Sequence record: MZ311864.1
From: Escherichia phage vB_EcoM_LNA4
Reading direction: 5' to 3' (one strand)
DNA: 64,000 bases
The notes under the pieces were generated by a model, which was not told the DNA's origin, ran no database searches, and saw only the letters and a list, made by a program, of their open reading frames with translations. Each line of letters begins with the position of its first letter. Position 1 is the stretch's first letter. Positions 38,572 through 63,648 of the stretch are shown one piece after another. Position numbers and translations under genes: made by a program.

Positions 38572-38892
38572 TTATTGATCCTTCTGGCATTTGTAGACTT
38601 GTGACACACGGGTCACAGACTTTTTGGTTGGGTTGATAGATGACCCCTGATACCAGCGAGACTCTTCGCTCAGAACATTCCCCACCTGAGCATCCTTTTT
38701 AGGGATCACTGTGTCGATGCAGGTCTCACCCATACTATCCTTCATATGGGACCAAATGCTCAGAGAAAAACGCTCGATCTTGTTGCACACCTCGACCTTG
38801 CACATAGGTTCGGTCTGGAAATCATCATCTTCTTCCGCATGGGCGGCTCCAACAAAAGCCATAGCCAGCAGAGCAATCGTTAATTTTTTCAT
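38572..38892 (-). CDS. secreted small protein
   Basis: Signal peptide MKKLTIALLAMAFVGAAHA; several Cys. Confidence 0.5.
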   Translation of the reverse strand: MKKLTIALLAMAFVGAAHAEEDDDFQTEPMCKVEVCNKIERFSLSIWSHMKDSMGETCIDTVIPKKDAQVGNVLSEESRWYQGSSINPTKKSVTRVSQVYKCQKDQ

Positions 38893-47021: not shown

Positions 47022-47302
47022 TAAAAGCTCTCCTCTCGTTCAAAGCAACCTTCAATTTCTGCATTACGCAGATGTTCACGTAGGTGATGGTACAGGACAT
47101 CATTTGGAATGTCAACGTAGATCTGGGCGGTGCTTTTGAATACAGCATAATACTCTAAATCCTGAAAACCGTTATAGTCCCAGTCGCTCTCTTTACTGTA
47201 GAAATCTGGCTTCTGAACAGTATAAAGTGCTTCGACCACCACAGCACCGTGATCAGGATGATCGTACTCAAACTCAATCTCTACTTTCTGTGGTTTAATC
47301 AT
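47021..47302 (-). CDS. hypothetical protein
   Basis: 93 aa ORF, start overlaps upstream stop. Confidence 0.45.
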   Translation of the reverse strand: MIKPQKVEIEFEYDHPDHGAVVVEALYTVQKPDFYSKESDWDYNGFQDLEYYAVFKSTAQIYVDIPNDVLYHHLREHLRNAEIEGCFEREESF

Positions 47303-47796
47303 ATTGCCATCTCCAGATCTGACTTCAGTTGCTCATTCTCTTCAATCAGTGCCTTGATGAAGTAAATCAGGTGAGTTGCTGCACTGTTGCAACCATCCCG
47401 GTTAAGCTCGTCGCTTACTCGTTCTTTTACTTCCTTCCCGTATCCGCTGAGGTCTTCCTTTAAATAGGTACTCACAGCCTTCCACGCATTGCTTTGGCTA
47501 ACGCGAGAGTCTAACTCTTTCAGCAAACGCAAGATATTCTCAGGACAAGCCGTGGCGATGTAGGTTGCATCAACATCGTTATTCCACTGGGACAGATTAC
47601 CTGTGCTCGCATGACGTACAGCAGGCCCCATGTTCGGATCAGTAATGAAGACAGTCTCCATATTCTTATCATCGGAGAAAGCCACCATTGAATGACCGTG
47701 CGAATCGATCCACCACTGCCCCGGTGTTGCATCCTTTGCCAGACGCTCAAGGTCTTCACGGAGCTTCTCGATTGAACGTTCCTTATTCATTATCAA
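47299..47796 (-). CDS. Ead/Ea22-like protein
   Basis: N-terminal coiled coil then ATPGQWW motif. Confidence 0.4.
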   Translation of the reverse strand: MIMNKERSIEKLREDLERLAKDATPGQWWIDSHGHSMVAFSDDKNMETVFITDPNMGPAVRHASTGNLSQWNNDVDATYIATACPENILRLLKELDSRVSQSNAWKAVSTYLKEDLSGYGKEVKERVSDELNRDGCNSAATHLIYFIKALIEENEQLKSDLEMAI

Positions 47797-48267: not shown

Positions 48268-48777
48268 TTATTCTCCTTCTTTGTTTACAAGACCATCATC
48301 AAATGGAATACCGAAGTATTCACTATTCAGGTCATCGCAGAATTCTACCCATTTCTTCTGGGATTTAATACCGCTACCATCGTTGCCCCATTTCTTGTCA
48401 CGCTGGATAGCGACTTGCTGGACAATGCGGTTAGTCAAGGCGAACGCCATACGATTGCTCATACGACGAAGTGGGTTGCCACGATAATCACCAGCATTGT
48501 GCATATGCACCGCATCTTCCAAGGAAAAGTGCATCGGAAGAGAGGTGATATCGTTGTTGAATGCACGGACGTAGCCGAAACGACCATCGGTGATGTTTGG
48601 GTACTCAGGCAAGCGACGAGGGACGTAACCAAAGGCAGACATCATCTCGTCAAGAGAGGCCATTTGGATGTGAACGGTGTCCATTGCCTTTTCTGCACGG
48701 AGACCGGACATTGAGTTCCAGTCTTCAATTTCCTTACGGAATTTTTTAGCCAACTCTAAACGAGAAAATGATGCCAT
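48268..48777 (-). CDS. hypothetical protein
   Basis: 169 aa ORF. Confidence 0.5.
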   Translation of the reverse strand: MASFSRLELAKKFRKEIEDWNSMSGLRAEKAMDTVHIQMASLDEMMSAFGYVPRRLPEYPNITDGRFGYVRAFNNDITSLPMHFSLEDAVHMHNAGDYRGNPLRRMSNRMAFALTNRIVQQVAIQRDKKWGNDGSGIKSQKKWVEFCDDLNSEYFGIPFDDGLVNKEGE

Positions 48778-50096: not shown

Positions 50097-51376
50097 CAAT
50101 CCTCCTTAGTTTCTTCTTCCAGGTAGATTTGTTCCAAGATTTCACCTGCTGCACCAATTACCAGAATATCTGGTGCGCCCACTGGCTTGTCCACACCCGT
50201 CAACACCTCATAACGACAGCAACGGCACTTCTGCTGGTTGTAGTCGTAAGGAACACTTACAACGTCAGCCGGGTTAACAGCTACCTCGATAAGGCTGTTA
50301 CCAACAAAGCCGCCTGCGTATTCCAGAGAGGCAATGTGCAGACCTTGGCTACAGGAGACACTTGGATTATCTTCAACCATGTTTCGTGGCATAGAAATAA
50401 TCTGGCCTTTGTAGTTTGGAACCTTCTTGGTGCGGGTATCGCGAGGACCATCAGCAGTGTTGGTGATCTTCTTGTACGCCTTAACGTCACCATTTTCAAG
50501 GATCTCAAGGTCGTTGTGCTGAATAAAATCATACAGCATCTTCACAGAGGCATAAGACGGGTTGTGCATCAGCTTCTGCATGAACTTCACATAACGCTCA
50601 TCGAAAGTATCATTGTTGATATCGTTGAGGATACGTTTTGCAAGAGTGGTCTCTTGCTTCTGCCCGTGCCAGTACAGAACACCATCCAATAGCTTCAGGT
50701 CTGGACCGAGATCAACGACCTTCTCTGCCTTCGCTTCCTTCCCTGCTTCGATCAGGGCGATAGCCCCATCAATGTCGCCCTCAATCAACAGCAGACCGAC
50801 ATCCGGGAAGATATCGTTGTCACGGTTAATCGTGTGCTGAGTACCATCAGGCATAGAGATGCAGACGTTACCGGGAGTCATGATGACCACAGGGTCTTTC
50901 TTCTCGGTGACCTCTTCGTCGAAATATGTTTTCGGTGCAGACTCTTCAACAACCACACTCACAGGGACCTTGTAAGGCTCCGGCAATAGTGTGACCGTTG
51001 CTTCGATATGCAGGTCGGTTACTTCGAAAGTGACTTCCCAGCGTTTTCCCTGCTTACCAAGATCCTTAACAACACCGTAGTTTACCCCCCGGTCACCCTG
51101 GGCGTGGTCAATAATCTTAGCATTCTTTTTGCCCTTTGCAAAGTCACGGGCCTCACCACGACTTCCGAAGAACATAGAAGACCGAGCAGGAACGGCTTCA
51201 GAGGTGAAGCTCATGTCAACTTCTGGGGGCTTAGAAGCCCCTTGACTATCTTTTGGTACAACCATCCAACGGCCTTCTGCCAGCACCGCTGGTGATACAC
51301 CACGGTCTACAACCTTCATACCGTTGAGGGATGCGTACTCACGCGCCTTACTGCGGGATTCAAAAAGATTACTCAT
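50096..51376 (-). CDS. rIIB: rIIB-like protein (tentative)
   Basis: 426 aa ORF translationally coupled (ATGA) downstream of the rIIA-like gene; assignment by synteny only. Confidence 0.4.
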   Translation of the reverse strand: MSNLFESRSKAREYASLNGMKVVDRGVSPAVLAEGRWMVVPKDSQGASKPPEVDMSFTSEAVPARSSMFFGSRGEARDFAKGKKNAKIIDHAQGDRGVNYGVVKDLGKQGKRWEVTFEVTDLHIEATVTLLPEPYKVPVSVVVEESAPKTYFDEEVTEKKDPVVIMTPGNVCISMPDGTQHTINRDNDIFPDVGLLLIEGDIDGAIALIEAGKEAKAEKVVDLGPDLKLLDGVLYWHGQKQETTLAKRILNDINNDTFDERYVKFMQKLMHNPSYASVKMLYDFIQHNDLEILENGDVKAYKKITNTADGPRDTRTKKVPNYKGQIISMPRNMVEDNPSVSCSQGLHIASLEYAGGFVGNSLIEVAVNPADVVSVPYDYNQQKCRCCRYEVLTGVDKPVGAPDILVIGAAGEILEQIYLEEETKED

Positions 51377-53367
51377 TTATTTTCTCCTTTGCTATCAATA
51401 AGTTGTCTATACTCAACCATCTCTGGTGAGTTAAAGTACTTCAGGTCAATGTATTTCAGAAGAGGATATTTTGCCTTTTTAGCAGCAAGCAAATTCTTCC
51501 CGATTCGCATACGTGCCTTGACGATGCGCTCCGCTTTTCTTTCAATATCATAGTAACCCATGATGTTAGAGAGGGCTGAAGACATATTGACCTTTTGTAC
51601 ATATTCAGGGTCTTCTTTCACTCCAATCCCAAAGACAGCAAGACAACTTACCATGTACCGATAATCAGTTGTCTTAGTAAATTGTTTGAGATGATACTCC
51701 ATAAGATTTGTTTTAGCAAGCTCATAAAGGTCATCACGGTCAATGATTCGCGTTTCTTCTGGCAACCAACCTGAACGATTCAATGGAACGATGTACAGTT
51801 TTCCTGTTACACCAAGTTCTTTCAGGAAGGTTTCAGACTGTGTATAGCGATGAGTCAGCGAGGAAACAGACCCCAGTGGACAATCACCTTTCACCTGACC
51901 ACCGCTGTAAATCATAGCTGCGTCAATGTCATCAAACTGAGCACGAGAAATCCTTGTTTTGTGGACAGACCCATCTTGTTCAATAATCCAAACAGCGTGA
52001 CCAGGCTCATACAGGCTGTAGCCACCATACTTTCTATCACCCTTCTCTACAGGCCGTTTTTCAAGCTCTGATAACTTAAAGACCATTCCCTCGAAGAAGG
52101 GATCTTTCAGAATATCTAAGGCTTCATAGCGTTCAGTAACAAATACACGCATATTTCTTTTTTCAGACAACCACTGACACTTAGACCGGATGCACCTATG
52201 ATCATCATCATAAACCAAAGGGTATCCGTTCATAAGCTCAGAATAGCCGTAATTTTGTTCTTTTAGCCGTTTGCTACCTTTTCCACCAAAGGTGATGCAG
52301 TCTTCTATTCTGAATGTTCCAAAATGCTCTTTGAACTTGTCAGCGATGAAACCAGAACCAAATCGGTTAGAGAAATATCCGCCGACACGGTTCATATAAT
52401 CCAAAACTTCTTTTAGGGTCGTGAATTGTTGAAGTTCTTTAACCACCTGTTCCCCACGCTTTTCAATTGCCTGGGTAACAAATCTCTCAAGGCGGTCACG
52501 AAATCCGCGATCATTCTTACCTTCAATAGTCCATTCACGCCCAGGGTTTACGTCACAATCCCCAATAGGAATGGAAACCATCATCATAGGCCATTCTTTG
52601 TTAGTGGACAGGAAATTAGACAGATAAGGTTGTTGCCCCATAACCACAACGCTGTCGGAGTTTTTGGATACAGACCCATACATTTCCAGCAGCCAACCAC
52701 TATCTTTATCTTCATAACGGTACTGCACCGGGTAGGTACGGTCGTTAAGTTCAGACGTGACGAATGGGTCATTGATCTCAAACGGAAACTTAGCGTAACG
52801 CAGGCATTTTACAATGGCCTGACGATATTTGTAAGTCTCAGAAGGATCGACGTTGAATTTGATTTCAACACCATTTTCTTCTTCTGTTTGTGATTCGTGC
52901 AGAGGAACAACCTCCGGGATACCCTCGTTTTTGTGGACAGAGTAAACAGTTTTAATTCCGTCCTTAATCGACGTGACCGTAAACATATCCGTCACAGTAA
53001 ACGGGGCTTTAGACCCGATACCTTTTGCGCCAATCAGATCGTTAGAATCACGCTTGGTGGAAGACCCCAACATCATAAAGGTCTGGGTGACCATATTGAA
53101 ATCCATACCAAGCCCTGAATCACGCACAGAATACCACGGTTCGAGATCGGTTGGAGAGTGGATGACAATCGCTTTCTCACGGCACCCAGCCTCCGTGTGT
53201 GAGTCTACAGCGTTGAACAGCGGTTCACGCACCGCAGCCAGAACTTTATCATTGTAAATACCGTCGATCAGGATGCTGAAAGTCTCAGCATTGATTGCGA
53301 TCCCTGCCTGATAGCGCTGTACGCTACCCGTTACCTGGACCTTCTCTTCGGCACGTTGGATTATCAT
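51373..53367 (-). CDS. rIIA: rIIA-like protein with GHKL-type ATPase domain
   Basis: 664 aa; N-box AVREPLFNAVDSH, G1 VRDSGLGMD, G2 GAKGIGSKA; no TOPRIM; followed by coupled second gene. Confidence 0.55.
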   Translation of the reverse strand: MIIQRAEEKVQVTGSVQRYQAGIAINAETFSILIDGIYNDKVLAAVREPLFNAVDSHTEAGCREKAIVIHSPTDLEPWYSVRDSGLGMDFNMVTQTFMMLGSSTKRDSNDLIGAKGIGSKAPFTVTDMFTVTSIKDGIKTVYSVHKNEGIPEVVPLHESQTEEENGVEIKFNVDPSETYKYRQAIVKCLRYAKFPFEINDPFVTSELNDRTYPVQYRYEDKDSGWLLEMYGSVSKNSDSVVVMGQQPYLSNFLSTNKEWPMMMVSIPIGDCDVNPGREWTIEGKNDRGFRDRLERFVTQAIEKRGEQVVKELQQFTTLKEVLDYMNRVGGYFSNRFGSGFIADKFKEHFGTFRIEDCITFGGKGSKRLKEQNYGYSELMNGYPLVYDDDHRCIRSKCQWLSEKRNMRVFVTERYEALDILKDPFFEGMVFKLSELEKRPVEKGDRKYGGYSLYEPGHAVWIIEQDGSVHKTRISRAQFDDIDAAMIYSGGQVKGDCPLGSVSSLTHRYTQSETFLKELGVTGKLYIVPLNRSGWLPEETRIIDRDDLYELAKTNLMEYHLKQFTKTTDYRYMVSCLAVFGIGVKEDPEYVQKVNMSSALSNIMGYYDIERKAERIVKARMRIGKNLLAAKKAKYPLLKYIDLKYFNSPEMVEYRQLIDSKGENK

Positions 53368-53556: not shown

Positions 53557-54087
53557 TCAGGCTCCCTGGGATTCAGGCTTTTCTTTGTAGAAAATGTGGT
53601 TATCAATCCTTACAGTGCGAATCATAACTTTCGTCCAGTATGGCTTAACCTTCTTTGAGTGATAATACGTAGAACCCTTAGTGATGTCAAGGGCATCGTA
53701 AACAATTTTATTGGTCGTGTGGACTTTGATCAGAAATGAGGCGAACTCCTTTGCCTTTTCCCAGCGTTCCTTTTCATACACTTTGAAAGAAGAACTTCCG
53801 GATGTCCAGGAGAATTGTCCAGACTGATAAACGATCTTCTTCACGGTGTGTGGGAACTTATCGTTGTCCTTGCGGTTCAGGGTAACAAAGGCGATAGACA
53901 TCATCCCAGAGTCGCTCTCACCACGGGCTTCACGATACATATTACATGCCAAGATATTTACCGCTGAGTCATCTTTTTTGCAGAGATGAATCACCTTGGG
54001 CTTCTTTGCGTTGTCTTTAGCCAGTACAGGCGTGGTGGCTAGAGAAAAAGCACAGGCGGTTGCCAGAATAAGGTTCTTTACTTTCAA
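53557..54087 (-). CDS. secreted SleB/CwlJ-like cell wall hydrolase (candidate endolysin)
   Basis: TTG start at 54087 with GGAG RBS; signal peptide KVKNLILATACAFSLATTPVLA; motif NMYREARGE...MMSIAFVTLNR...YQSGQFSWTSG. Confidence 0.65.
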   Translation of the reverse strand: MKVKNLILATACAFSLATTPVLAKDNAKKPKVIHLCKKDDSAVNILACNMYREARGESDSGMMSIAFVTLNRKDNDKFPHTVKKIVYQSGQFSWTSGSSSFKVYEKERWEKAKEFASFLIKVHTTNKIVYDALDITKGSTYYHSKKVKPYWTKVMIRTVRIDNHIFYKEKPESQGA

Positions 54088-54101
54088 ATTACGCTCCAAA
54101 T

Positions 54102-54124
54102 TAAAAAGCCCCAGGGTAGGGGCT
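54102..54124 (-). terminator. rho-independent terminator (minus strand)
   Basis: AGCCCC-tacccu-GGGGCU followed by UUUUU on the minus-strand transcript. Confidence 0.6.
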
Positions 54125-54129
54125 ATCAA

Positions 54130-54486
54130 TTAACGGCGGGAGATGTCGCCTGAGACAGTTTTTACATTGCCTTCTATTGTTTTTGCAAGTACATCTCCGG
54201 ACACAGTGGTAACGTCACCAAGTGCGCCGTTTTCGACATGAACATCACCAGAGGTGGTTTTGATATTACCAGCTACTGTGCCGTATACGTTGACATCGCC
54301 AGATACCGTGCTGACCCCTTTAACGTCGCCGTTAATCACGACAGTGATGTTCTTTTCTTGTGTGGTGTGGATGATCTGTCCGTTAAGGATAATGTTATCC
54401 CCGTCAGACGTGATATGAACATCCCCGGCCACAATACTACCATTGAGAATCTTGCCGTTAATGGTAATAACATTAGAGTTTACCAT
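54130..54486 (-). CDS. bactofilin-like beta-helix repeat protein
   Basis: ATG at 54486 with AGAGGAG RBS; periodic SGDV.V.G / V.G.V repeats across about 110 aa. Confidence 0.45.
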   Translation of the reverse strand: MVNSNVITINGKILNGSIVAGDVHITSDGDNIILNGQIIHTTQEKNITVVINGDVKGVSTVSGDVNVYGTVAGNIKTTSGDVHVENGALGDVTTVSGDVLAKTIEGNVKTVSGDISRR

Positions 54487-54514
54487 ATTTTCTCCTCTTA
54501 ATAAATCCTTAAGC

Positions 54515-54694
54515 TTATCCACGCATCGGAACAATTGGCTCTAAATCCTCTTCTGGGTACAACCGCCAGCCCAGCATATCAAAAGAATAACACCAACCAT
54601 CTTGCCATTGCACATCGGTGATTCTCATAACCCTGCCAGTGTGTTTGTCACGAACAAAGTGATTAACTTCGAACTTCGGTTGTGTCTGCTGCAT
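54515..54694 (-). CDS. hypothetical small protein
   Basis: ATG at 54694 with GAGGA RBS. Confidence 0.35.
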   Translation of the reverse strand: MQQTQPKFEVNHFVRDKHTGRVMRITDVQWQDGWCYSFDMLGWRLYPEEDLEPIVPMRG

Positions 54695-54848
54695 GAATGA
54701 TCCTCGCTTTTTGAACTGAGAAGACAAACGTACCATGTTCCTCTACGTATTGTCTACCCATTTCTTCATCTTCGAAGATAAGAGTATCAACCTCAGACTT
54801 CACTGGCCTGTCCTTAACAGGCCGTGAGGTGCATACGATTAGCGCCAT
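54663..54848 (-). CDS. hypothetical small protein
   Basis: ATG overlaps RNA ligase stop (TAATG coupling). Confidence 0.35.
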   Translation of the reverse strand: MALIVCTSRPVKDRPVKSEVDTLIFEDEEMGRQYVEEHGTFVFSVQKARIIHAADTTEVRS

Positions 54849-55894
54849 TACAGAGGACTCTCGTTCAGCTTCTGCATGTACCAACCACGAGATTTGTTGC
54901 TGATGAACTTCGCAACATCCTTCATGGTCAGGGAGTTAGCTTCCAGAACATCGCCTTCTTCCTTGTTGATGTCACGGCTAACCCAGGCAATGAACTCACC
55001 GATCTTAGATTGGTCGAGACCAACTTCACCAAGAGCCTGCTCAAGGCGGTTCTCAGTCACAGCGTACTCAACGAACTCACGCATGTTCTGGAGCCGTACC
55101 GGGTCAACCTCTGCCAGGGTTTTAACCTTGGATACAGAGTGCTTCTCACCCTTCACTTTGAACCACAGGCCGGAGTCTTTAGCCAGTTCTGGTTGCAGCG
55201 GGGACCAAACGATACCCTCACCTACACCCTCAACACCAAAGTGTTTACCAACCGGGCAGGATGCTTCCACCTGCATCGTCAGGGTTGTCAGATCGTTCTG
55301 TACCTGCTCAGGTTCATTGAACGGAATATTCACGGACCAGAAACCAAAGTCAAGAACACTGAAGATCCGCTCTTGTGGCAGGCCAATGCCGTACTGGAAG
55401 TTTGGTGGCATCCAGTTCAGGGCGTTGCCCTCTTCATTGCGACCAACAGCAACACGGAAGATCGTGAAGAAAGGTTCAACCTCACTTACAGCCACACCTT
55501 TCTGGATACCACGACCAGCCCACTCACCAGCGATCTCAACCGGGAAGGAGAACGGTGTGCCGTTGCATTCGCATAGGTATTTAACCTGCTCCAGAAGTTC
55601 TTTGGTATCTTTACGCACCATGAACGCAGCAAAGCCGTTGTTGTCGTCACCGACTTGGACGATACGTTCTTTGGACTGGAAAACAACCTCATCTTCAGAG
55701 TGGAAGACAATGCTGCCATTGGTCCCGTGGATCTTAACCGTACCAATGTACGGGATCAGGTACTGATCCGGCGCAACAACCTTACGCTTGATGTTACCAT
55801 TCTCATCAATCCCGTCAAAGGTCAGACGATCATGGATTGCCTTAATCACTTGGCGGAACTGGTGAGTGCTTGGGTATTTAATAGGTTTAGTCAA
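54848..55894 (-). CDS. ATP-dependent RNA ligase, Rnl2 family
   Basis: Motif I KIHGTN, motif FGEWAGRGIQKGV, motif V WFKVKGEKH; TTG start at 55894 with AAGGAG RBS 7 nt upstream. Confidence 0.75.
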   Translation of the reverse strand: MTKPIKYPSTHQFRQVIKAIHDRLTFDGIDENGNIKRKVVAPDQYLIPYIGTVKIHGTNGSIVFHSEDEVVFQSKERIVQVGDDNNGFAAFMVRKDTKELLEQVKYLCECNGTPFSFPVEIAGEWAGRGIQKGVAVSEVEPFFTIFRVAVGRNEEGNALNWMPPNFQYGIGLPQERIFSVLDFGFWSVNIPFNEPEQVQNDLTTLTMQVEASCPVGKHFGVEGVGEGIVWSPLQPELAKDSGLWFKVKGEKHSVSKVKTLAEVDPVRLQNMREFVEYAVTENRLEQALGEVGLDQSKIGEFIAWVSRDINKEEGDVLEANSLTMKDVAKFISNKSRGWYMQKLNESPL

Positions 55895-56276
55895 CTTTAG
55901 ACTCCTTTTTAGGTGCAATCGCTTGTGTGATCAGGTTGTCGATGTCGTCAACCCACTCTGGGGTGCGTAGGAACAGCATCAGATTCATTGTCTGAAGCAA
56001 ATACGCACTGTTTTGTGTGATCGCATAGATATCGTAACCATCTACCAGCAGTCGTTCAACTGTCGATGTACGGATGGGCTTATTATCAAAGCCACGGCCT
56101 TGATGATCACGACCATCTAAAAAACCACAAATACAACGAGGCCAGACCTCTACGTGGGGACGGGCATTAACCACCACCCCAGCAAAGAGCTTACCACCGA
56201 TGAATTTTGGTTCAGGAACAGTCTGTGCCAGACGAATTGGATCACCAACACCAACCTCAGATTTACTCATTGTCAT
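55887..56276 (-). CDS. hypothetical protein
   Basis: ATG at 56276 with GAGGGG RBS. Confidence 0.4.
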   Translation of the reverse strand: MTMSKSEVGVGDPIRLAQTVPEPKFIGGKLFAGVVVNARPHVEVWPRCICGFLDGRDHQGRGFDNKPIRTSTVERLLVDGYDIYAITQNSAYLLQTMNLMLFLRTPEWVDDIDNLITQAIAPKKESKVD

Positions 56277-56535
56277 TACTTTTCCCCTCAAATATGTATC
56301 GTACAAGAAGTTCACTAATCTGAACTATGACATAACGCGTTTGTTCATCGAACTTAACCTTCACCGGGCGATCCCCGTTATTCGGATCATAGACAGTCTT
56401 GGAGCAAAGATTCCATGCGTTCTTAGCCGCCCCGGTGGTGACCCACCCAATCTTTGTACCGTTCGAGTTCCAAAGCTTACCCTCTTGAGTATCGTATATG
56501 ACGAATACTGAGTCAAGGTGTTTTTTAGACTTCAT
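56263..56535 (-). CDS. small protein, paralog A of tandem pair
   Basis: Shares ...G.AK.A......KF.EQTR..IV... pattern with adjacent ORF. Confidence 0.4.
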   Translation of the reverse strand: MKSKKHLDSVFVIYDTQEGKLWNSNGTKIGWVTTGAAKNAWNLCSKTVYDPNNGDRPVKVKFDEQTRYVIVQISELLVRYIFEGKSNDNE

Positions 56536-56767
56536 GAGCAACAATTCCGTCTGGTGTGATCGCCACCCGGACAATCTTAAAGCGTGTTTGCTCACCGAAC
56601 TTACAGCGAAGCGGATTCTTCGCACTGGAAGAAAATGCGGTCTTAGCAATCCCAGAGGATGAATATGCTACACGGTTCATACCAGAGAACCAGAAAGAGT
56701 TGCTTTCAGTATCAAGAATAGCAAATAGCTCTTTCTGTTGCTCTGCGGATTTATGCTTGTAGTACAT
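56525..56767 (-). CDS. small protein, paralog B of tandem pair
   Basis: 80 aa; similar to paralog A. Confidence 0.4.
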   Translation of the reverse strand: MYYKHKSAEQQKELFAILDTESNSFWFSGMNRVAYSSSGIAKTAFSSSAKNPLRCKFGEQTRFKIVRVAITPDGIVAHEV

Positions 56768-56967
56768 TATTCCTCCAGTTTCCAGCCGCGTTTATTAAGC
56801 CACTCGTCGATTTGAATCCCGTTGCCATCACCACTTGGCTTCTCAGCACCAAGCAATAACACAACAAAACTCTGTCCACGAGGGGCTGTATATGAGAACA
56901 CTGTGTTCCCAACATGAAGATCGATCTTTTTGGTATGTGCAACCATACCGTCTTTTAGTTCAATCAT
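56767..56967 (-). CDS. hypothetical small protein
   Basis: ATG at 56967 overlaps upstream stop (ATGA). Confidence 0.35.
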   Translation of the reverse strand: MIELKDGMVAHTKKIDLHVGNTVFSYTAPRGQSFVVLLLGAEKPSGDGNGIQIDEWLNKRGWKLEE

Positions 56968-57149
56968 TTCCAGTTCCCATTGAAAAGCCGCAGCACCAAG
57001 AGGTTCATGAAGTACAGGGGCCAAAGCAGGCCCATGAACACACCACCAAGAAGATCCATAGTGTCTAATCTCCAGAATTGCTGCGCTCTTTTCATGAAGA
57101 TATAAAACCCTACAAATGCGAACAGAAGATAGGTAATCCCAACCATCAC
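56964..57149 (-). CDS. small membrane protein
   Basis: 61 aa, two hydrophobic helices. Confidence 0.35.
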   Translation of the reverse strand: MMVGITYLLFAFVGFYIFMKRAQQFWRLDTMDLLGGVFMGLLWPLYFMNLLVLRLFNGNWK

Positions 57150-57637
57150 TTTTTCTCCGGAAGGATATAAACTGTTACATCACAATCCCAGAAAACAGAT
57201 TTGATCATCGCTTCAATGACGTTCCAGTCACCACCTGCAAGACCAGCACCGATTTTCGGGAAGCCGATTTTGTAGTCAGCCATAGAGCCGTCTGTAAAGC
57301 TCTGTAAGGCCTTCTTCATCTGATCCAACGAATCATACAGGGCATTGTAATCGAGGTCACGTAGGCCCTGTTTACGGCGATTATAACCATATTGCGAATA
57401 CAGATTAAATCCTGCGAGAGATCCGTCCTTCATGAAGGCCACAGTGAAGGTCCCAAGTTTGGCTTTATCACCTTTCTCGGTCTTCAGATCCGCAGCGTAC
57501 ATTTTAGGGAACGCTTCTTTGATCAGTGGAGCTATACCGCTACCCATTGTGCAATAACAATTGCAGCCATGCGCAAAAACATTAACCTCACCAGATTTCA
57601 CAGCCTCAATTAGGTCGCCTACTTTATACTTAAGCAT
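57146..57637 (-). CDS. macrodomain protein, TARG1/DarG-like ADP-ribosyl hydrolase family
   Basis: NVFAHGCNCYCTMGSGIAPLIKEAFP and KIGFPKIGAGLAGGDWNVIEAMIKSVF resemble TARG1-type macrodomain core motifs; GGAGGA RBS. Confidence 0.6.
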   Translation of the reverse strand: MLKYKVGDLIEAVKSGEVNVFAHGCNCYCTMGSGIAPLIKEAFPKMYAADLKTEKGDKAKLGTFTVAFMKDGSLAGFNLYSQYGYNRRKQGLRDLDYNALYDSLDQMKKALQSFTDGSMADYKIGFPKIGAGLAGGDWNVIEAMIKSVFWDCDVTVYILPEKK

Positions 57638-58140
57638 CAGTCCTCCACTATAATATCATGAATCGTTTTTACGTATGCTTGATAACATTCACTCGCTTCC
57701 TCAGCGGAGTCGAATGTTCCAAGGTGGATCTTACTATACACAGCATGGTATCTTAACCTAGTCCACCTTTTGTCTACGAATACACCACGGAATCCTGTTT
57801 GGTTCTTCTTTCCTCTGCTGTAATTGTAGACGTTTACAAACTTCTGGACATCCCTGAGGTTAGTAATACGATTGTTATCTTTTTGTCTGTCCTTGTGGTC
57901 AATAAAATAAGTGGGCCACACGCCGTAATAAAAAGCCCAGGCCACTCTGTGTGCCAAGAAGTAAAAACCTTTACCTTCAATCTTAACACCAAGCCTTACG
58001 TAACCGTCTTTTCTTTTTGTGCCTGCAACCTTTCCAAAATGACGACGAGCGAGAGGATTGATACACGTAAACAAACCTGTCTCAGGGTCATATGAGAAGG
58101 AAGATTTAAGCGCCTGTAATGCCTCTTCACTCTCCTTCAT
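57637..58140 (-). CDS. HNH endonuclease with AP2 domain
   Basis: LAHRVAWAFYYGVWPTYFIDHKDRQKDNNRITNL plus AP2-like GFRGVFVDKRWTRLRYHAVYSKIHLGTFDSAEEA. Confidence 0.75.
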   Translation of the reverse strand: MKESEEALQALKSSFSYDPETGLFTCINPLARRHFGKVAGTKRKDGYVRLGVKIEGKGFYFLAHRVAWAFYYGVWPTYFIDHKDRQKDNNRITNLRDVQKFVNVYNYSRGKKNQTGFRGVFVDKRWTRLRYHAVYSKIHLGTFDSAEEASECYQAYVKTIHDIIVED

Positions 58141-58358
58141 CAGTAATCCTCTTTCAGTATACTCATGATAGGCTCGATAAGATATTGAGCCTTAACCTTT
58201 TTATAACCACCAGGGTCAGGAACCTTCATTGTGATAACGTGATGTTCGCCAATGATCTCTATATCAAAGTCATCACATGAGAATGTTGCAACCCGCCCAA
58301 CAACTGTCAGGATTGATACCTGTTTTGGTCTTGAATCATCAAGAATCGTCATGCACAA
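58140..58358 (-). CDS. hypothetical small protein
   Basis: 72 aa ORF, start overlaps upstream stop. Confidence 0.4.
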   Translation of the reverse strand: MCMTILDDSRPKQVSILTVVGRVATFSCDDFDIEIIGEHHVITMKVPDPGGYKKVKAQYLIEPIMSILKEDY

Positions 58359-58579
58359 CTCCTTTCTATGAAAGCAGTCATGCTCTCACGAGCTTCTGCT
58401 TTGGTTTTAGCACAGACAACGAACACTCGATGCCCTTTATAGGTGTATCCTCCCATAACAATGTTGGCGGTGTCAAGCCACCAACGCTCGTTTAGTTCAG
58501 ATTTTGGGAATTTAAACTTAGCCATTAGCGATTGTACCATGCAACATGTGTGGCCCACTCTGGACGTGGTTTCCAGCAA
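58349..58579 (-). CDS. hypothetical small protein
   Basis: 76 aa ORF. Confidence 0.4.
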   Translation of the reverse strand: MLETTSRVGHTCCMVQSLMAKFKFPKSELNERWWLDTANIVMGGYTYKGHRVFVVCAKTKAEARESMTAFIERSCA

Positions 58580-58722
58580 CTTAGGTTCGACTCATACTTG
58601 TCGTTTTTGCACCAGTAACCGTCCCCATCGTCAGGGATGAATGCCCCGACCCTAACACAGTTTGTCCAGTCCTCCACGGACATAACATCAGCATAGTCCG
58701 GGATGGGTTTGAATTCTACCAT
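58525..58722 (-). CDS. hypothetical small Trp-rich protein
   Basis: 65 aa ORF. Confidence 0.35.
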   Translation of the reverse strand: MVEFKPIPDYADVMSVEDWTNCVRVGAFIPDDGDGYWCKNDKYESNLSCWKPRPEWATHVAWYNR

Positions 58723-59009
58723 AACTCCCCCTTCATTAAGACAATATGGTTGCGTTGAGCAAAGTCACGAACAAAGTGAACATACTCTTTGTCGTGTTCA
58801 GAAATCTTAGCCAGAATCGCCCCGGCAGATTCACCAGCAGTCCAAGAAGACTGGCAGAAACCACTGTCTTCTCGAATGTGACAGTTCTTTGCATCAGGAC
58901 CGTACTGGTCTTTCACGTAGTCGATATCGAGGGAGCCAAGACGAACAAGGCGATCATCGCCCTCTTTATCAACGATGTAAATATAACCGAAACCAGGTCT
59001 ACGACTCAT
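58716..59009 (-). CDS. hypothetical protein
   Basis: 97 aa ORF. Confidence 0.4.
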   Translation of the reverse strand: MSRRPGFGYIYIVDKEGDDRLVRLGSLDIDYVKDQYGPDAKNCHIREDSGFCQSSWTAGESAGAILAKISEHDKEYVHFVRDFAQRNHIVLMKGELW

Positions 59010-59154
59010 GCTTTGCTCTCCACGTAATATGGTAGGCGTCTGATCAGGTCTTCAGGAGCACCGTTCTCTGTCCAGGTAAGGCCCTGGTCACCAGACACAT
59101 AGCCTTTCCCGTTGACAAACTTGCGCCAGACATTGCGGAACTGGTTTTTGTAGA

Positions 59155-59376
59155 TCATTCGATCACGCTCCAGCCTTCATCCTGCCAGGATTCTCCACGA
59201 TACCAACCTGCCATAGGGCAACCGTCTTCTGCGTAGATACGACCACCAACCATTTCAAACCACTCATCACTGGTGAAATATTGGTTGCGTACACGCTTAC
59301 CTTCGCGCATGGCCTGCTGTGCTTCTTTCCAGGTTAATTTAGACACGGAATTGCCCCTTCTTGTTCTTGAAGCCAT
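59155..59376 (-). CDS. DUF2829-like small protein (possible Tad2-type sponge; tentative)
   Basis: 73 aa; pattern LTWKEAQQAMREGKRVRNQYF...GWYRGESWQDEGWSVIE recalled as resembling DUF2829. Confidence 0.35.
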   Translation of the reverse strand: MASRTRRGNSVSKLTWKEAQQAMREGKRVRNQYFTSDEWFEMVGGRIYAEDGCPMAGWYRGESWQDEGWSVIE

Positions 59377-59680
59377 TAGAGATCTTCTGACCAGCCAAGA
59401 ATTTCGGATTTGTCAGACGAGATTCAAAAGACTGACGGACCTTGTGTGCCAGCTTAGAGCAGTAATCCACATCGGACAGTGCTTCTTGGTTCGCTTTAAC
59501 ACGGATACGCTTCACACTCGGAACGATGGTCAGACCACCAAAGCCGTCAACGTAATAGAACTCGACCTCATAACCGTCAGTGGTCAGTTCGTTGAAGATT
59601 GGGAATGTCTGTTGCAGTGCCTCTTTATGTGCAAGAGACATCAGACGTTGTTGGTCGTTCAAAGTTTCAGTGATTTGCAT
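59339..59680 (-). CDS. hypothetical protein
   Basis: ATG at 59680 with GAGGA RBS. Confidence 0.4.
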   Translation of the reverse strand: MQITETLNDQQRLMSLAHKEALQQTFPIFNELTTDGYEVEFYYVDGFGGLTIVPSVKRIRVKANQEALSDVDYCSKLAHKVRQSFESRLTNPKFLAGQKISNGFKNKKGQFRV

Positions 59681-59738
59681 TGAGTTTATCCTCGTTTTGT
59701 TTGGTATGCACAAAGATTAACAGCCTCCGAAGAGGCTG

Positions 59739-60428
59739 TCAAATGTTTTTCGCAGGTTTTTTAGATGATCCTCGGTTGTAGGGTATTCCTCCCCACTCCA
59801 TGTTCTCAATTATATATCCATTGAAGCATGTCTCATCCCCACACTCGTGCTGTGTTTTTGTCAGGAATGTTATGTAATTTCGATCTTCTGTTACCATGTG
59901 TACACTGTACATTTCCCTGAACCTGTCACATCGCAAGATAGTTCCGGGGATGCTTACCTTATCCCTTGAAGGTTTGTAATAATTAGCCCGATCCTGGATA
60001 GACAGGTACGCACCAAGACAGGCGGCCTTCAGAGAGCAAGAGACCTTCAGATTATCAAAATCACCCCCGCTGATATACCACAGCAGGAGGGGTGGAGGAC
60101 AATCCTCAAACGCAACACCCGCCCATTCACCGAAGGGGAATATTCCCCTTTCGATAAAATTGAGGTGCCTGCGCTGTGTGTCTGTCTCCACATCAACATA
60201 ACTTCTTTTCTGCTTCAGGTCTATGCTTCTGTCGTAACTCTCCTCTCCCAACAAAGGTAAAGACCTTTTAAAGTAGTCTTCAGCAGCAAATTCAGGACTG
60301 TAGCTCTCCGAACCAAGGGAGATAACAGAGGCATAAGCCCATTCATCTCCACTGTTGATGCAGAGTTTAAGCTCATAAAACCCAAGCTCATGTTGTTGAC
60401 GATACAGAATCCAGCGATCTACAGACAC
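59739..60428 (-). CDS. hypothetical protein
   Basis: 229 aa ORF immediately downstream of AAA+ ATPase gene. Confidence 0.5.
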   Translation of the reverse strand: MSVDRWILYRQQHELGFYELKLCINSGDEWAYASVISLGSESYSPEFAAEDYFKRSLPLLGEESYDRSIDLKQKRSYVDVETDTQRRHLNFIERGIFPFGEWAGVAFEDCPPPLLLWYISGGDFDNLKVSCSLKAACLGAYLSIQDRANYYKPSRDKVSIPGTILRCDRFREMYSVHMVTEDRNYITFLTKTQHECGDETCFNGYIIENMEWGGIPYNRGSSKKPAKNI

Positions 60429-60437
60429 AAAGCCCCC

Positions 60438-61646
60438 TTAGTTCACGATTGCATCAACACCATCAGAGAAGTTCTTACGGTATTCTGTGATGATCTCCAT
60501 GACAACCGGGTATTTCTGGAGCAGTTTAGCAGGTAAACGCTCACGGTTCCCGGACATTAAGATCGCTTTACCGAAGGAGTTCTCCTGGATGAACGACATG
60601 AACACAGAACTAACGAAGTCGCGGTTGGATGCCGTATCATGCTGACCGAAGTTATCATACATATACTTCAGGAAGTTCGCAGCGAACGCGATTACCTCAT
60701 CGTCGGTATACTCTTTGTTCTGGATCGCCTTGCGTAACCAGATAGACCCCTGAGAGCCTAGAGTCCACAGGATATCCGAAGAGTCAGCACCCGTATGTTT
60801 GGTGAGTTTGCCACTCATAACATCTTGGATAGAGACCATTTTGGAGATACGGGTATGGTATTCCCACAGTTCGTTAGCCAGAGGCTTACCGATACTGCCC
60901 TGCAACGATGCCAGAGCCAGACGAGCAGACAACAGGCCAGCGTCATAATCGTACAGAATATCACTTGCCGTTACCCAGGTGCGTGGTGTGGCGTATGAAG
61001 GGGAGTTAATCTCCAGCATCTCTTCATAGTTCTCAATCTTACCTGGGTTTGCGCTCACAAAACCAACAACCGATGGATGGACATCGTTGTGCATGGCGTA
61101 GTCCTGCAACCAGACAGTCGTGTCGTAATCCAGTTCGACGAGGATCATACGGTTAGCTAGCGGAGCTTCCAGCATACTTACCGCAGTACCATCACCAGGG
61201 CGGTTGCCTGCACCTGCAAACACCGCACCTGCCGGGAATTTGTATGTACCGATCTTGTGATCAAGCATGATCTGATAGGCAACTTTCTGGAGATATGGTT
61301 CCGCGTGTAGCAATTCATCCAGGAATACAATACCCTTCCAGTTCGGGTCATCAGGCCAGAAGCTTGGAATAGCATACACAGTGCGTGTAATACCATTGTC
61401 GTCGGTTACGGGGATCTGCACCCCAACAACGTCAGACGGTTCTTTATCCGCAAGACGGAAGTCGATCAGGTTATCGTCGCGGTCACCAAACATCATGTTG
61501 GCTACCTGCTTCATTGCCTGGCTCTTGCCAAGACCTGCACCGCCAAACATCATCAGGGCGCGTCCACGACGCTGACAGAACTTCATCAGATCAGGCACAT
61601 CCCGAAGCGTGATACGGTTCTCGTCAAAAATGTTACGACTCGACAT
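60438..61646 (-). CDS. AAA+ ATPase (MoxR/AAA_5-like)
   Basis: Walker A MMFGGAGLGKSQ; Walker B IVFLDELLHA; ATG at 61646 with AAGGAG RBS. Confidence 0.6.
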   Translation of the reverse strand: MSSRNIFDENRITLRDVPDLMKFCQRRGRALMMFGGAGLGKSQAMKQVANMMFGDRDDNLIDFRLADKEPSDVVGVQIPVTDDNGITRTVYAIPSFWPDDPNWKGIVFLDELLHAEPYLQKVAYQIMLDHKIGTYKFPAGAVFAGAGNRPGDGTAVSMLEAPLANRMILVELDYDTTVWLQDYAMHNDVHPSVVGFVSANPGKIENYEEMLEINSPSYATPRTWVTASDILYDYDAGLLSARLALASLQGSIGKPLANELWEYHTRISKMVSIQDVMSGKLTKHTGADSSDILWTLGSQGSIWLRKAIQNKEYTDDEVIAFAANFLKYMYDNFGQHDTASNRDFVSSVFMSFIQENSFGKAILMSGNRERLPAKLLQKYPVVMEIITEYRKNFSDGVDAIVN

Positions 61647-61875
61647 TAGTTTGTCTCCTTTGTTCAAGATAGTTTTCGATTATCCCCTCTACATCTCCGG
61701 GGTCGATATCATTGTATAGGGTATGGATTCTCTCTGCAAGGTCTTTCGGCAATAACTTATCTGTTTGATGCACCCTACCAGCACCAAAAACCACATACCA
61801 TGCACGACGACTCAGGCGGTGCCGTTGACGAGGAACGTCCCTGTTAAAATCTAAAGGCTTCACTTCTCCACCCAT
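61633..61875 (-). CDS. hypothetical small protein
   Basis: 80 aa ORF. Confidence 0.35.
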   Translation of the reverse strand: MGGEVKPLDFNRDVPRQRHRLSRRAWYVVFGAGRVHQTDKLLPKDLAERIHTLYNDIDPGDVEGIIENYLEQRRQTNVES

Positions 61876-62231
61876 ACTCGATTCTCATCACACCAGTTGT
61901 AAAGATCTTTCATGATGTCGTTGAACTCCCGCATCGGTGTATAATGCCGGATCGGATCTGCATCATGCCCCTCTGCCTCACATTCCGCAATGGAAGCCTG
62001 CCACTCAAGATATGTAGGGACATCCCGGAAATAGATTATAATATCAACAAGGTCTGCATCACACTGAACGCTGTCGTAGCTTGCCTTGTTCGGGAATTTA
62101 AATTCCAGACGACGAGCAATCTCTTTCGCAAGCTCATGAACTGTTTTATCAGTCCAATCTTCAGGGCCACACTCGCCGTTTCGCTTTCTCCACACATCAT
62201 CAATGCGGAGGGTTTGTTTCCACTCAGCCAT
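61860..62231 (-). CDS. hypothetical protein
   Basis: 123 aa acidic ORF. Confidence 0.45.
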   Translation of the reverse strand: MAEWKQTLRIDDVWRKRNGECGPEDWTDKTVHELAKEIARRLEFKFPNKASYDSVQCDADLVDIIIYFRDVPTYLEWQASIAECEAEGHDADPIRHYTPMREFNDIMKDLYNWCDENRVWVEK

Positions 62232-62712
62232 TGGTTATTTTCCTCAATTCAAATTCGTCACCATACCCGATCATATGCCCTTTGGCAGTGATCACCTTTT
62301 CTCCGAACACGCTGCCAGTGCATTTACCAATGAAAACTTCCGGCATATCTTCCTCAGACAGGAGAATATCTACCTTGAACTTGCCTTGATAATGTCTAGC
62401 ATTGTAATGTGGCCCTTTATCATCTGTCTTGTGCCAGCATTTGCCGTTCCAGCGATATTTATTGTGCTTGTACCATGTATATGATACCCAGTTATCCTGC
62501 GCTATATGGTCCACCTGAACAGTAATCAGTCGTCCTGTGCTGCGAAGTAGATCGTCATATTGCTTTTCGTATAACTTCGCACGATTTTTCATATCGTTGT
62601 AATACTGTTGATAGCGATCCGCCCTGTTGACCATAACCTTGAGGATACTCTCGATTGGTGTGCCTTTCTCAAGATGTTCTTCATAAAGCTGTTTGCTTGA
62701 TTTGATATTCAT
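62224..62712 (-). CDS. hypothetical protein
   Basis: 162 aa; AAGGAG RBS. Confidence 0.5.
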   Translation of the reverse strand: MNIKSSKQLYEEHLEKGTPIESILKVMVNRADRYQQYYNDMKNRAKLYEKQYDDLLRSTGRLITVQVDHIAQDNWVSYTWYKHNKYRWNGKCWHKTDDKGPHYNARHYQGKFKVDILLSEEDMPEVFIGKCTGSVFGEKVITAKGHMIGYGDEFELRKITNG

Positions 62713-62921
62713 TTAAGCTCCTTAATGGATTCCAGGTCAAGGTAGTCATCACCACCCACCACTTTCCCGTCAGTTTTGCGATACTTTACGACTTTTCCGG
62801 TCTCTGAATGCTGGTAAGACATCCAGTAACGAGGCGTTTCGCGAAGTTTCTCAGTCCACGCCCAGCCGAGGCGGGGTTTTTTGACTGTACCTTTGTGGGT
62901 GTAACCTTGATTTCTGGACAT
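62709..62921 (-). CDS. hypothetical small basic protein
   Basis: 70 aa; AGGAG RBS; stop overlaps downstream start (ATGA). Confidence 0.45.
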   Translation of the reverse strand: MSRNQGYTHKGTVKKPRLGWAWTEKLRETPRYWMSYQHSETGKVVKYRKTDGKVVGGDDYLDLESIKELK

Positions 62922-63142
62922 TCTTTGCTCCTGTATAGAGTCACTTTGTAAAGATTCTGATCGTAAATCAAAAAAGGCCTTGACACCGGACCGACAGACC
63001 TGTATCTACGATTCACCTGAATGTAGCCGCGCTCCTCCAACTTGAGAACGAGCTTACTTACTTTCCATGAAGGAATTCCCAGCAGGAACCCCATCTGTTT
63101 CTGAGTATACTTGTTTGTGCGGAGCAGTGTCAATAGATTCAT
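62786..63142 (-). CDS. putative HTH DNA-binding protein (3' extent uncertain)
   Basis: N-terminal helix-turn-helix-like segment LRTNKYTQKQMGFLLGIPSWKVSKLVLKLEERGYI; C-terminal half overlaps another ORF. Confidence 0.35.
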   Translation of the reverse strand: MNLLTLLRTNKYTQKQMGFLLGIPSWKVSKLVLKLEERGYIQVNRRYRSVGPVSRPFLIYDQNLYKVTLYRSKECPEIKVTPTKVQSKNPASAGRGLRNFAKRLVTGCLTSIQRPEKS

Positions 63143-63648
63143 AATTGCGACAGCATGTTGATTGCTTCGTGATGTTCTTTCATCTTTGTCAGACGAAGAT
63201 ACATGTCATGGTACTTACGAATACGAAGCAAGTCTTTATCGCTAAGTCCTTTCAGACGACGAACATCAGAGTTGTGTCGCAGGTCTGCGAGCTTAACACG
63301 GATTGCATCGTAGTTTCTTGCAATACCCTGGAAATACTCCTCCGGTGTCTGATTTGGTGTTTTCGTCAAAAGAACCACAGCATCTTTAACACGATTAGAG
63401 AAGCCCAACAGCACTAGGTCAGCAGCCGTCACATCGGTATCTTCCACCACATCGTGAAGAGCCGCGATAGCCATAAGCTGAAAATCATCGCTCTTCAGGT
63501 AGTGCATCACCTTTAGCGGGTGGAGGATGTAGGGGTTACCACCCTTATCTTTCTGATTCAGGTGTCCTTCTGCTGCAATCTTGATAGCCAGGGCAAGTTC
63601 TTGCGCCGGGGTTAAAACTGGAATCGTGGAATTGTAAGTTCGTACCAT
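63139..63648 (-). CDS. HD-domain small alarmone hydrolase (SpoT/Mesh1-like (p)ppGpp hydrolase family)
   Basis: EGHLNQKDKGGNPYILHPLKV...AIAALHDVVEDTDVT matches HD-domain ppGpp hydrolase pattern; GGAG RBS. Confidence 0.65.
   Translation of the reverse strand: MVRTYNSTIPVLTPAQELALAIKIAAEGHLNQKDKGGNPYILHPLKVMHYLKSDDFQLMAIAALHDVVEDTDVTAADLVLLGFSNRVKDAVVLLTKTPNQTPEEYFQGIARNYDAIRVKLADLRHNSDVRRLKGLSDKDLLRIRKYHDMYLRLTKMKEHHEAINMLSQL

Follow-up and report, generated by a model that had tools for sequence, protein, structure and literature searches.

Among the closest described counterparts of the locus analyzed here are the accessory genes of T4, the SPbeta anti-Gabija locus, and the counter-conflict suites of jumbo phages. 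The traits behind this comparison, namely co-directional small genes, enzymatic erasers alongside putative sponges, mosaic alleles, variable gene presence, and neighboring rIIA/rIIB, are found in about 10 kb of Escherichia phage vB_EcoM_LNA4 (sequence record MZ311864.1), at positions 53557–63648 on the minus strand of a 64,000-nucleotide window, by which we mean the whole stretch of DNA that was analyzed. In contrast to those large-phage regions, this arm is not a compact exchangeable island, as a scaffold of SleB, RNA ligase 2 (Rnl2), macrodomain, MoxR, and HD genes is interleaved with variable slots. A preliminary description had proposed an anti-defense or host-takeover island here. The features that it listed all lie on the minus strand at the positions it gave, its soft spots being a bactofilin call and the word "neighboring," which it applied to a PnuC/NadR pair.

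Three genes of the arm have relatives with experimentally supported anti-defense activity, the precedent belonging to the relative in each case: a small alarmone hydrolase (SAH; active against toxSAS toxins), a macrodomain protein (DarTG2), and a MoxR-like ATPase (the predicted defense system DS-28). These three genes and a fourth, encoding a Tad2-like protein, lie within 6.5 kb. We read the region as the rIIA-proximal early accessory arm of Seunavirus, in which several independent counter-defense effectors would sit among conserved scaffold genes and variable slots, and we assign this reading a probability of roughly 0.6.

Sequence comparisons support placing the HD-domain protein encoded at 63139..63648 (g28; minus strand, as for every arm gene below) in the small alarmone hydrolase family of the RSH superfamily, with a PbcSpo/Aph1-like affinity, in keeping with the alarmone hydrolase that had been proposed. 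It matches the (p)ppApp hydrolase Aph1 (PDB: 7SMG) with an E-value of 4.5e-26 over 142 residues, the Rel/RelA/SpoT hydrolase domains in the PDB with E-values of 3e-10 to 1e-7, and TIGR00691 with an E-value of 4.5e-15; its Pfam HD_4 score of 21.3 bits lies under the gathering cutoff of 27.2. The motifs HPLKV and ALHDVVEDT in its sequence supply the His...His-Asp...Asp metal motif. The protein is 92.9% identical to gp220 of phage PVP-SE1, which occupies the same genomic position in that phage. Like gp220 and Aph1, it consists of a single HD domain of ~170 residues, but it is another allele in another phage, likened to them by sequence alone. Members of this family occur in 255 phage records, among them Seunavirus, Mydovirus, Certrevirus, Henunavirus, Aeromonas T4-like phages, and pneumococcal prophages.

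The PVP-SE1 SAH (gp220, PbcSpo subfamily) neutralized all five toxSAS toxins against which it was tried, namely CapRel, PhRel2, FaRel2, PhRel, and FaRel (Jimmy et al., PMC7229694). PaSpo is a protein of phage SSU5, not of SSE-121; the Seunavirus representative in those assays was the PVP-SE1 SAH. Four of the five toxins pyrophosphorylate the tRNA CCA end, a modification that some SAHs undo, and FaRel produces (pp)pApp; Aph1 has specificity for (p)ppApp. By analogy, we infer that the most economical mechanism for g28 is that of an adenosine 3'-pyrophosphohydrolase. Such an enzyme would act on (pp)pApp as well as on pyrophosphorylated tRNA CCA ends, taking away the adenosine 3'-pyrophosphates, and abortive infection by toxSAS systems of the CapRel/FaRel type would thereby be undone.

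The second putative eraser is a stand-alone macrodomain protein encoded at 57146..57637 (g12), for which the macrodomain assignment of the preliminary description is confirmed by a Pfam Macro score above cutoff (25.9 versus 22 bits; E-value 1e-5). Its sole NCBIfam match is to the macro part of antitoxin_DarG (E-value 1.1e-8) and its sole PADLOC match is to the macro part of DarG (E-value 1e-10), the latter being the only match that PADLOC gave. Relatives in the PDB include BT1257, TARG1/OARD1, YmdB, and Poa1p-type enzymes, with ADP-ribose 1''-phosphate phosphatase structures among them, and the protein matches phrog_335 with an E-value of 1e-62. By tblastn, it is 34% identical to tk.4 of the T4-like phage PP01 over 96% coverage (E-value 9e-19), and its family extends to 3,021 phage records. 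Membership in the DarG-like macrodomain family (TARG1/DarG clade) is thus supported by these profile matches. In T4, tk.4 was found to be the single gene required against DarTG2 and was named AdfM (2025 preprint, bioRxiv 10.1101/2025.11.20.689424). Because the NCBIfam and PADLOC matches are to DarG only, tk.4 is a homolog, and tk.4 has been shown to counter DarTG2, g12 is, on sequence grounds, a distant homolog of a validated orphan-antitoxin eraser. It resembles T4 Tk.4/AdfM and the DarG2 macrodomain in being a macrodomain of ~160 residues, stand-alone in g12, but differs from Tk.4 in its identity of just 34% and from DarG in having no C-terminal DarT-binding domain. By analogy with AdfM, for which the genetics were done, g12 may take ADP-ribose off DarT2-modified DNA.

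The third gene with a precedent encodes a MoxR-like AAA+ ATPase (60438..61646, g22). Its assignment, which agrees with the AAA+ ATPase described earlier, draws on a match to phrog_1297 ("ATPase," E-value 6e-107) and on Walker A (GGAGLGKS) and Walker B (VFLDEL) motifs read directly from the sequence; in Pfam, only bpMoxR was matched, at an E-value of 0.098, with no AAA family above threshold, and a sequence search of the PDB returned no match. In a transposon sequencing (Tn-seq) study of Bas54, a V5-like member of the Vequintavirinae in which 146 of 227 genes were non-essential, the "MoxR ATPase" bas54_0063 was one of two genes specifically required against DS-28 (bioRxiv 10.1101/2025.11.20.689424). 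Both proteins come from the same subfamily of phages, and g22 sits in a rIIA-SleB-MoxR arm as in rV5, whereas its presumed orthology to bas54_0063 is taken from annotation. V5-like records among the 60 matches listed of the 784 records that carry this family contain a single match each, ~50% identical to g22. From the Bas54 genetics, g22 would be predicted to counter DS-28 as well.

The fourth candidate is a protein of only 63 residues encoded at 59155..59346 (g19), for which fold and transitive profile evidence point to a minimal Tad2-like protein and a candidate immune-signal sponge. Its AlphaFold2 model, built with 15 homologs, has a pLDDT of 91.7, and in a Foldseek search of the PDB the nine best matches are all Tad2 chains (SPO1 Tad2, ModTad2, and SptTad2), with probabilities of 0.72–0.97 and a TMq of 0.64–0.70, after which probabilities drop below 0.13. 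A profile search of 1.84 billion representatives returned 311 relatives of g19; 32 of the 148 family representatives scanned matched PF11195 ("Tad2-like"), the best with an E-value of 2.4e-7, and no other family recurred. As in the three Tad2 proteins, an N-terminal helix is followed by an antiparallel sheet, and the N-terminal motif "A..A.keGkkV" is shared. The model and these matches support the view that g19 comes from a shortened and divergent lineage within the Tad2-like superfamily, on the strength of its fold and without a direct profile match. The DUF2829 protein that the preliminary description had listed as possible therefore holds by the fold search and the transitive hidden Markov model evidence, and does not hold as a direct PF11195 match. 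The family occurs in 455 phage records, comprising Vequintavirinae, Klebsiella and Citrobacter T4-like phages, Felix O1-like phages, and T5-like phages; among 40 matches listed, 39 stand under "hypothetical protein" and one under "tRNA methyltransferase." Judged from its modeled fold, g19 might bind and hold back a nucleotide signal used in immunity of the Thoeris, CBASS, or Pycsar kind. A more specific proposal, that g19 represents an unrecognized minimal Tad2-like subclass of ~60–65 residues acting as a sponge with a different pocket or ligand, and that g14–g21 hold further inhibitors, is tentative and in our view rather doubtful.

To compare the arm with its relatives, we built a matrix of presence and alleles by tblastn of the window proteins against the arms of 13 Vequintavirinae. 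Of the 27 genes, just two, coding for SleB and MoxR, occur in every one of the 13 arms. The wider scaffold, found in 10–12 of them, consists of g03–g05, Rnl2, g07, g08, the macrodomain gene, g15, g24, the HD gene, and g29. At least nine genes occur in seven arms or fewer: the HNH endonuclease gene, g14, and g21 (three arms each), g16 and g20 (five), g18 and g27 (six), and g17 and g26 (seven). Tiled nucleotide identities form a patchwork that matches the mosaic alleles, and genes in the variable slots of relatives have no informative Pfam domains. The rV5 arm consists only of SleB, one open reading frame (ORF), MoxR, and six more genes, with neither an SAH nor an Rnl2 gene, and GEC_vB_MG lacks the block that contains the HD gene. 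When blocks of equal length were compared, at least 80% of the arm was covered by five records, as against 25 for a tail/baseplate block and 15 for a replication block. Because it is more variable than the tail and replication blocks, the arm is not a fully conserved core, and the variability among related phages that would be expected of such a region is borne out. For one record, OY757067.1 (Klebsiella phage vB_Kpn_K23PH08C2), the annotation table does not line up with the sequence in this region, where product names such as Sir2, DNA ligase, and Nampt are placed over arm-homologous DNA; this table was excluded.

Relative to the Mydovirus phage KB57, the HD protein is 89%, the macrodomain protein 86%, and the MoxR protein 62% identical. 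This gap between the two putative erasers and MoxR could reflect either unusually strong constraint on the erasers or a recent exchange between genera.

By megablast against 50,697 phage records, the arm is that of a Seunavirus (Vequintavirinae). The closest match is Cronobacter phage GAP31, which is 93% identical across 83% of the query, other best matches being Enterobacter phage EC152 and Escherichia phage 4MG, and PVP-SE1-like Salmonella phages and Mydovirus Klebsiella phages match with lower coverage. In these genomes, the region corresponds to the arm between a divergent early promoter region and rIIA. Transcription in the window runs along the minus strand from ~64000 through the arm to rIIA (51373–53367), rIIB, and the helicase, primase-helicase, and DNA polymerase genes, then to NadR and PnuC. 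The arm itself comprises 27 co-directional genes, from the stop of the SleB-like hydrolase gene (53557) to the start of the HD hydrolase gene (63648), with gene starts chosen from ribosome-binding sites and orthologs. A PHROG family is matched by 26 of the 27 ORFs (E ≤ 5e-10), with g14 as the sole exception, and substitutions fall mostly at third codon positions; the many small ORFs reported earlier are confirmed, with orthologs in related phages. Of 29 ORFs within the arm or at its edges, about 20 had no Pfam match at an E-value of 0.1. Sigma-70-like promoters number 14 in the arm as compared with 15.5 ± 4.3 in shuffled sequence, not above background, and terminator-like sites number 19 against a shuffled expectation of 7.5 ± 2.7. 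Two minus-strand, terminator-like hairpins are intergenic, at 59742–59717 (a UUCG-type loop between g21 and g20) and at 54124–54107 (between g03 and the SleB gene); as predicted from sequence, they suggest that the arm is divided into about three transcription units.

An RNA ligase of the Rnl2 family is encoded at 54848..55894 (g06). Family membership, which upholds the RNA ligase call of the preliminary description, is supported by a Pfam RNA_ligase match above cutoff (34.1 versus 27 bits; E-value 3.8e-8), by phrog_548 (E-value 9e-78), and by TIGR02307 (E-value 8e-8, positions 27–312 of 326, below the equivalog cutoff). Residues 50–311 align to T4 Rnl2 (PDB: 2HVQ), with KIHGTN, GEWAGRGIQ, EGIVWSP, and KVKGEK as motifs I, IIIa, IV, and V. 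The family is present in 349 phage records, and the gene is kept in 11 of the 13 arms. A literature search returned no experimental evidence for a phage Rnl2 countering a defense system. By analogy, and as a weak suggestion, we infer a defense role in which Rnl2 may reseal RNA nicked by ribonuclease attack.

The stop codon of the adjoining gene (g07, 55887..56276) overlaps the start of the Rnl2 gene, and the two co-occur in 10 of the 13 arms. The encoded protein of 129 residues is modeled as a β-barrel with two helices. It is at most 65% identical to its counterpart in any of the 13 relatives, and 100% identical, over the aligned 98% of the query, to a protein from a Joint Genome Institute (JGI) metagenome contig (P0167). 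Its product name in RefSeq and PHROG, "methyltransferase," is spurious, as the model contains no methyltransferase fold; the label appears to stem from a weak likeness of the model to the non-catalytic RFTS domain of DNMT1.

Several observations weigh against reading the arm as a counter-defense region. By the nature of the comparison, the roles suggested for LNA4 would derive from relatives and not from these exact alleles. Within the arm, conservation is highest, and not lowest, for the recognizable enzymes. Their conservation fits erasers of universal small-molecule or nucleic-acid marks, for which co-evolution with host proteins is not needed, but a housekeeping role would explain it just as well. 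Past the divergent promoter and the end of the window, GAP31 has ~30 kb with about 75 more small ORFs, including a MazG-like pyrophosphatase, so the arm forms one portion of a ~40-kb early region and not a discrete island. Neither SleB nor the HNH endonuclease nor the bactofilin-like protein is linked to defense. Members of the MoxR family occur in 784 phage records from widely differing lineages, N4-like phages and cyanophages among them, and in phiTE the MoxR gene adjoins the ortholog of PVP-SE1 gp216 (rv5_gp012), a gene that lies past the window end and is named "VWA-like domain-containing protein" in EC152 and "HNH endonuclease" in RefSeq records. This spread and the nearby VWA-annotated gene are, as far as annotation and homology go, in line with MoxR being a chaperone of general function. 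The inspected 71 kb of GAP31 (1–45 kb and 122–148 kb) carry no annotated polynucleotide kinase/phosphatase. Because these parts of GAP31 hold no annotated end-healing partner, Rnl2 alone would be unable to repair anticodon-nuclease cuts.

Two of the proteins, g12 and g19, carry difficulties of their own. In the HMMER alignment, the catalytic Asp125 of TARG1 falls opposite an Ala of g12, whose GAGLAGGDW loop is like that of BT1257; TARG1 K84/K85 fall opposite R88/K89 of g12 in a gapped stretch of low confidence, so that the alignment of the catalytic Lys (K84 in TARG1, K80 in DarG) is ambiguous. For g19, the Foldseek E-values of 0.2–0.5 are not significant alone for so small a protein, the sequence itself has no match to Pfam PF11195 (DUF2829) at an E-value of 0.1 or 0.01, and single-sequence and family-profile searches of the PDB gave only non-significant Tad2 matches (profile E-values 0.36–1.2) that cover the N-terminal motif alone. 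SPO1 Tad2 has 89 residues, and its β2-β3 and β4-β5 loops, with α2 and α3, aid dimerization and help to shape the ligand pocket. At 63 residues, compared with the ~89 typical of Tad2, g19 falls 26 short of SPO1 Tad2; both of its loops, the carriers of α2 and α3 in SPO1 Tad2, are much reduced. Sponge activity is therefore not to be assumed for g19.

Taken together, the three genes with experimental relatives, the Tad2-like fold, and the variability of the arm argue for the anti-defense part of the earlier proposal, while the discrete island does not stand, the arm being one part of a larger early region; it also holds passengers and an Rnl2 for which no end-healing partner is annotated in the inspected parts of GAP31. 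An alternative we consider unlikely, yet deserving of attention, is a general host-takeover and metabolic early region, in which the SAH would lower host (p)ppGpp so that transcription and translation continue, Rnl2 and the macrodomain protein would serve phage RNA and ADP-ribose metabolism, MoxR and a putative VWA-type partner would be a chaperone for assembly or remodeling, and co-location would simply follow from early timing. It would account for SleB and MoxR being core to the whole subfamily, for the 78–89% conservation of the HD, macrodomain, and Rnl2 proteins between genera, for the spread of MoxR and its VWA-annotated neighbor, and for a peptidoglycan hydrolase and a homing endonuclease within the arm. 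The PVP-SE1 SAH, however, neutralizes toxSAS toxins that modify tRNA, which control of (p)ppGpp does not explain (PMC7229694), and T4 tk.4 and the Bas54 MoxR gene are dispensable on laboratory hosts but required on specific defense carriers (bioRxiv 10.1101/2025.11.20.689424). Moreover, rV5-like phages have neither the SAH nor Rnl2 in the arm, and these genes are therefore not essential for takeover.

The overlap of the g07 stop with the Rnl2 start, the retention of this pair in most arms, and the matches of g12 to ADP-ribose 1''-phosphate phosphatase structures would also suit a joint RNA-repair module, in which Rnl2, the translationally coupled g07, and a Poa1p-like macrodomain protein repair tRNA that host ribonucleases have cut and clear ADP-ribose-phosphate by-products; repair of this kind, by a ligase together with a macrodomain, has been suggested in jumbo phages (PMC7824862). 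We find such a module quite improbable, given that g07, as modeled, looks like a non-catalytic barrel of the RFTS kind and shows no end-healing fold, that domain and family scans found no kinase/phosphatase, Tpt1/KptA, or 2H enzyme in the arm, and that g12 has DarG as its only NCBIfam and PADLOC match and tk.4/AdfM as homologs. Very improbable, finally, is the absence of any functional cluster, with the domains brought together by descent and chance in a long early run and many of the small ORFs not being genes. The background-level promoter count and the ~30 kb of further small ORFs past the divergent promoter in GAP31 would be expected on that account, but the PHROG matches and retained orthologs, the third-position substitution bias, and the proximity of three genes with precedents to a Tad2-like gene speak against it. 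We thus retain the accessory arm with several independent counter-defense effectors as the preferred reading.

The arm is orthologous to that of sequenced phages, and key functions have already been published for relatives; for this reason it does not constitute a new system. Its newest element is the minimal Tad2-like family, the general idea and most of the recognizable functions being already known from relatives. What the ~10 kb do bring together is an ortholog of a toxSAS-validated SAH, a DarG-like putative eraser, a MoxR protein linked through Bas54 to DS-28, and a minimal Tad2-like protein from a widespread and almost unannotated family. The ~18 small ORFs with mosaic alleles make the arm a compact and tractable place in which to search for new inhibitors, and it is reasonable to regard these uncharacterized ORFs as candidates. 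With their broad host range, phages of Seunavirus and Mydovirus are candidates for use in biocontrol and therapy directed at Salmonella, Cronobacter, Klebsiella, and Enterobacter, and the counter-defense repertoire they carry therefore helps to decide which strains can be killed.

At its rIIA-proximal end, the arm encodes a SleB-like cell-wall hydrolase (53557..54087, g02), matched by Pfam Hydrolase_2 (E-value 6e-21) and by phrog_938 (endolysin) and present in all 13 arms. The Hydrolase_2 match and a signal-like, Sec-type-like N-terminal segment, KVKNLILATACAFSLATTPVLA, agree with the secreted hydrolase described before. The protein is probably related to lysis or the envelope and not to defense; together with the HNH endonuclease, it would be a passenger with another role. 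The characterized endolysin of PVP-SE1 is a different gene, gp146, and the SleB-like protein would then be a second, exported peptidoglycan hydrolase. The gene upstream (54130..54486, g03; phrog_3163; 11 of 13 arms) encodes a protein rich in SGDV repeats, possibly a bactofilin-like β-helix. Its Pfam Bactofilin (PF04519) score is 14.5 bits, under the cutoff of 27.9 (E-value 0.044, residues 54–107), and bactofilin membership is not supported by this comparison; of the earlier bactofilin-like call, the repeats that suggest a β-helix remain.

Between this gene and Rnl2 lie two small ORFs of 59 and 61 residues (g04 and g05, 54515..54848; phrog_3261 and phrog_9816), the first a mosaic allele that is 98% identical to 4MG and 44% identical to GAP31. 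Upstream of g07 are tandem paralogs of 90 and 80 residues (g08 and g09, 56263..56767), both in phrog_8277 and 30% identical to each other (E-value 6e-13), of which relatives hold one or two copies with divergent alleles. They are followed by a protein of 66 residues and a membrane protein of 60 residues with a hydrophobic maximum of 1.78 (g10 and g11, 56767..57146; phrog_8770 and phrog_15498). Next to the macrodomain gene, at 57637..58140 (g13), an HNH_3 + AP2 homing endonuclease is encoded (Pfam HNH_3, E-value 1.5e-12). It is 99% identical at the amino acid level to PVP-SE1 gp231 and to its GEC_vB_MG counterpart and is absent from GAP31, EC152, and 4MG, where the slot is empty or filled by an unrelated ORF of 170 residues. 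From this distribution, it looks like a selfish element in a variable slot, acquired by recent homing or lateral transfer. The five small ORFs that follow (g14–g18, 50–97 residues, 58140..59158) form a hypervariable sub-block, found in 3 to 11 of the 13 arms; all but g14 belong to PHROG families, and none has a Pfam match.

On either side of a terminator-like hairpin described above (59742–59717) are the lineage-restricted accessory ORFs g20 and g21 (113 and 229 residues, 59339..60428). The longer of the two (59739–60428) was detected by tblastn in GAP31, EC152, and 4MG only, among the 50,697 phage records, and forms one cluster among 5.8e9 proteins. Its match to phrog_3628 has an E-value of 3.5e-58, and a weak QSregVF_b/DUF3820-like motif spans residues 88–124; a sequence search of the PDB gave no match. 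Upstream of MoxR lie g23, g24, and g25 (61633..62712; PHROG 17917, 6318, and 13383), of which g24 is acidic, with a net charge of −10, and kept as far as rV5 gp006, and g25 represents a mosaic allele, with identities of 98% to EC152 and 38% to GAP31. A full-length ortholog of g29 that is labeled "thymidylate kinase" has no Pfam match.

Adjoining the SAH gene, g26 (70 residues) and the winged-helix-turn-helix-like g27 (118 residues; weak helix-turn-helix Pfam matches) occupy 62709..63142 and overlap by 136 nucleotides in different frames. In the window and six relatives, 19 of the 29 variable sites within the overlap fall at the third position of g26 codons, corresponding to the second position in g27, so that the codon-position analysis shows constraint only on the g26 frame; the part unique to g27 has an ordinary third-position bias (36 of 50 variable sites). 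Because of this difference between the overlap and the g27-only part, both genes are taken to be coding, and the last ~45 residues of g27 look unconstrained. Public annotations of 62709–63142 carry g26 alone, g27 alone, or both.

Outside the arm, both members of the PnuC/NadR pair are real genes by their Pfam matches: PnuC at 35183–35890 (NMN_transporter, E-value 3e-37) and NadR at 37497–38609 (CTP_transf_like and AAA_28). They lie 15–18 kb downstream of the arm, past the replication genes, so that "neighboring" was generous as a description of their position. NARP3, which consists of a PnuC-like transporter and a NadR-like enzyme (Bas30_87/86), restores NAD+ against Sir2-HerA (PMC13464706). 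The window encodes both components, but they are ~1.6 kb apart, with four small ORFs between the GAP31 orthologs, and do not form a tight two-gene cassette; the likeness to Bas30_86/87 is one of domains. The arm is contiguous with rIIA/rIIB, which in T4 counter RexAB (bioRxiv 10.1101/2025.11.20.689424). Within the replication block are a second HNH_3 endonuclease ORF, an Ead/Ea22-like protein, and a DUF7390 protein (40002–40475, 47299–47796, and 48268–48777).

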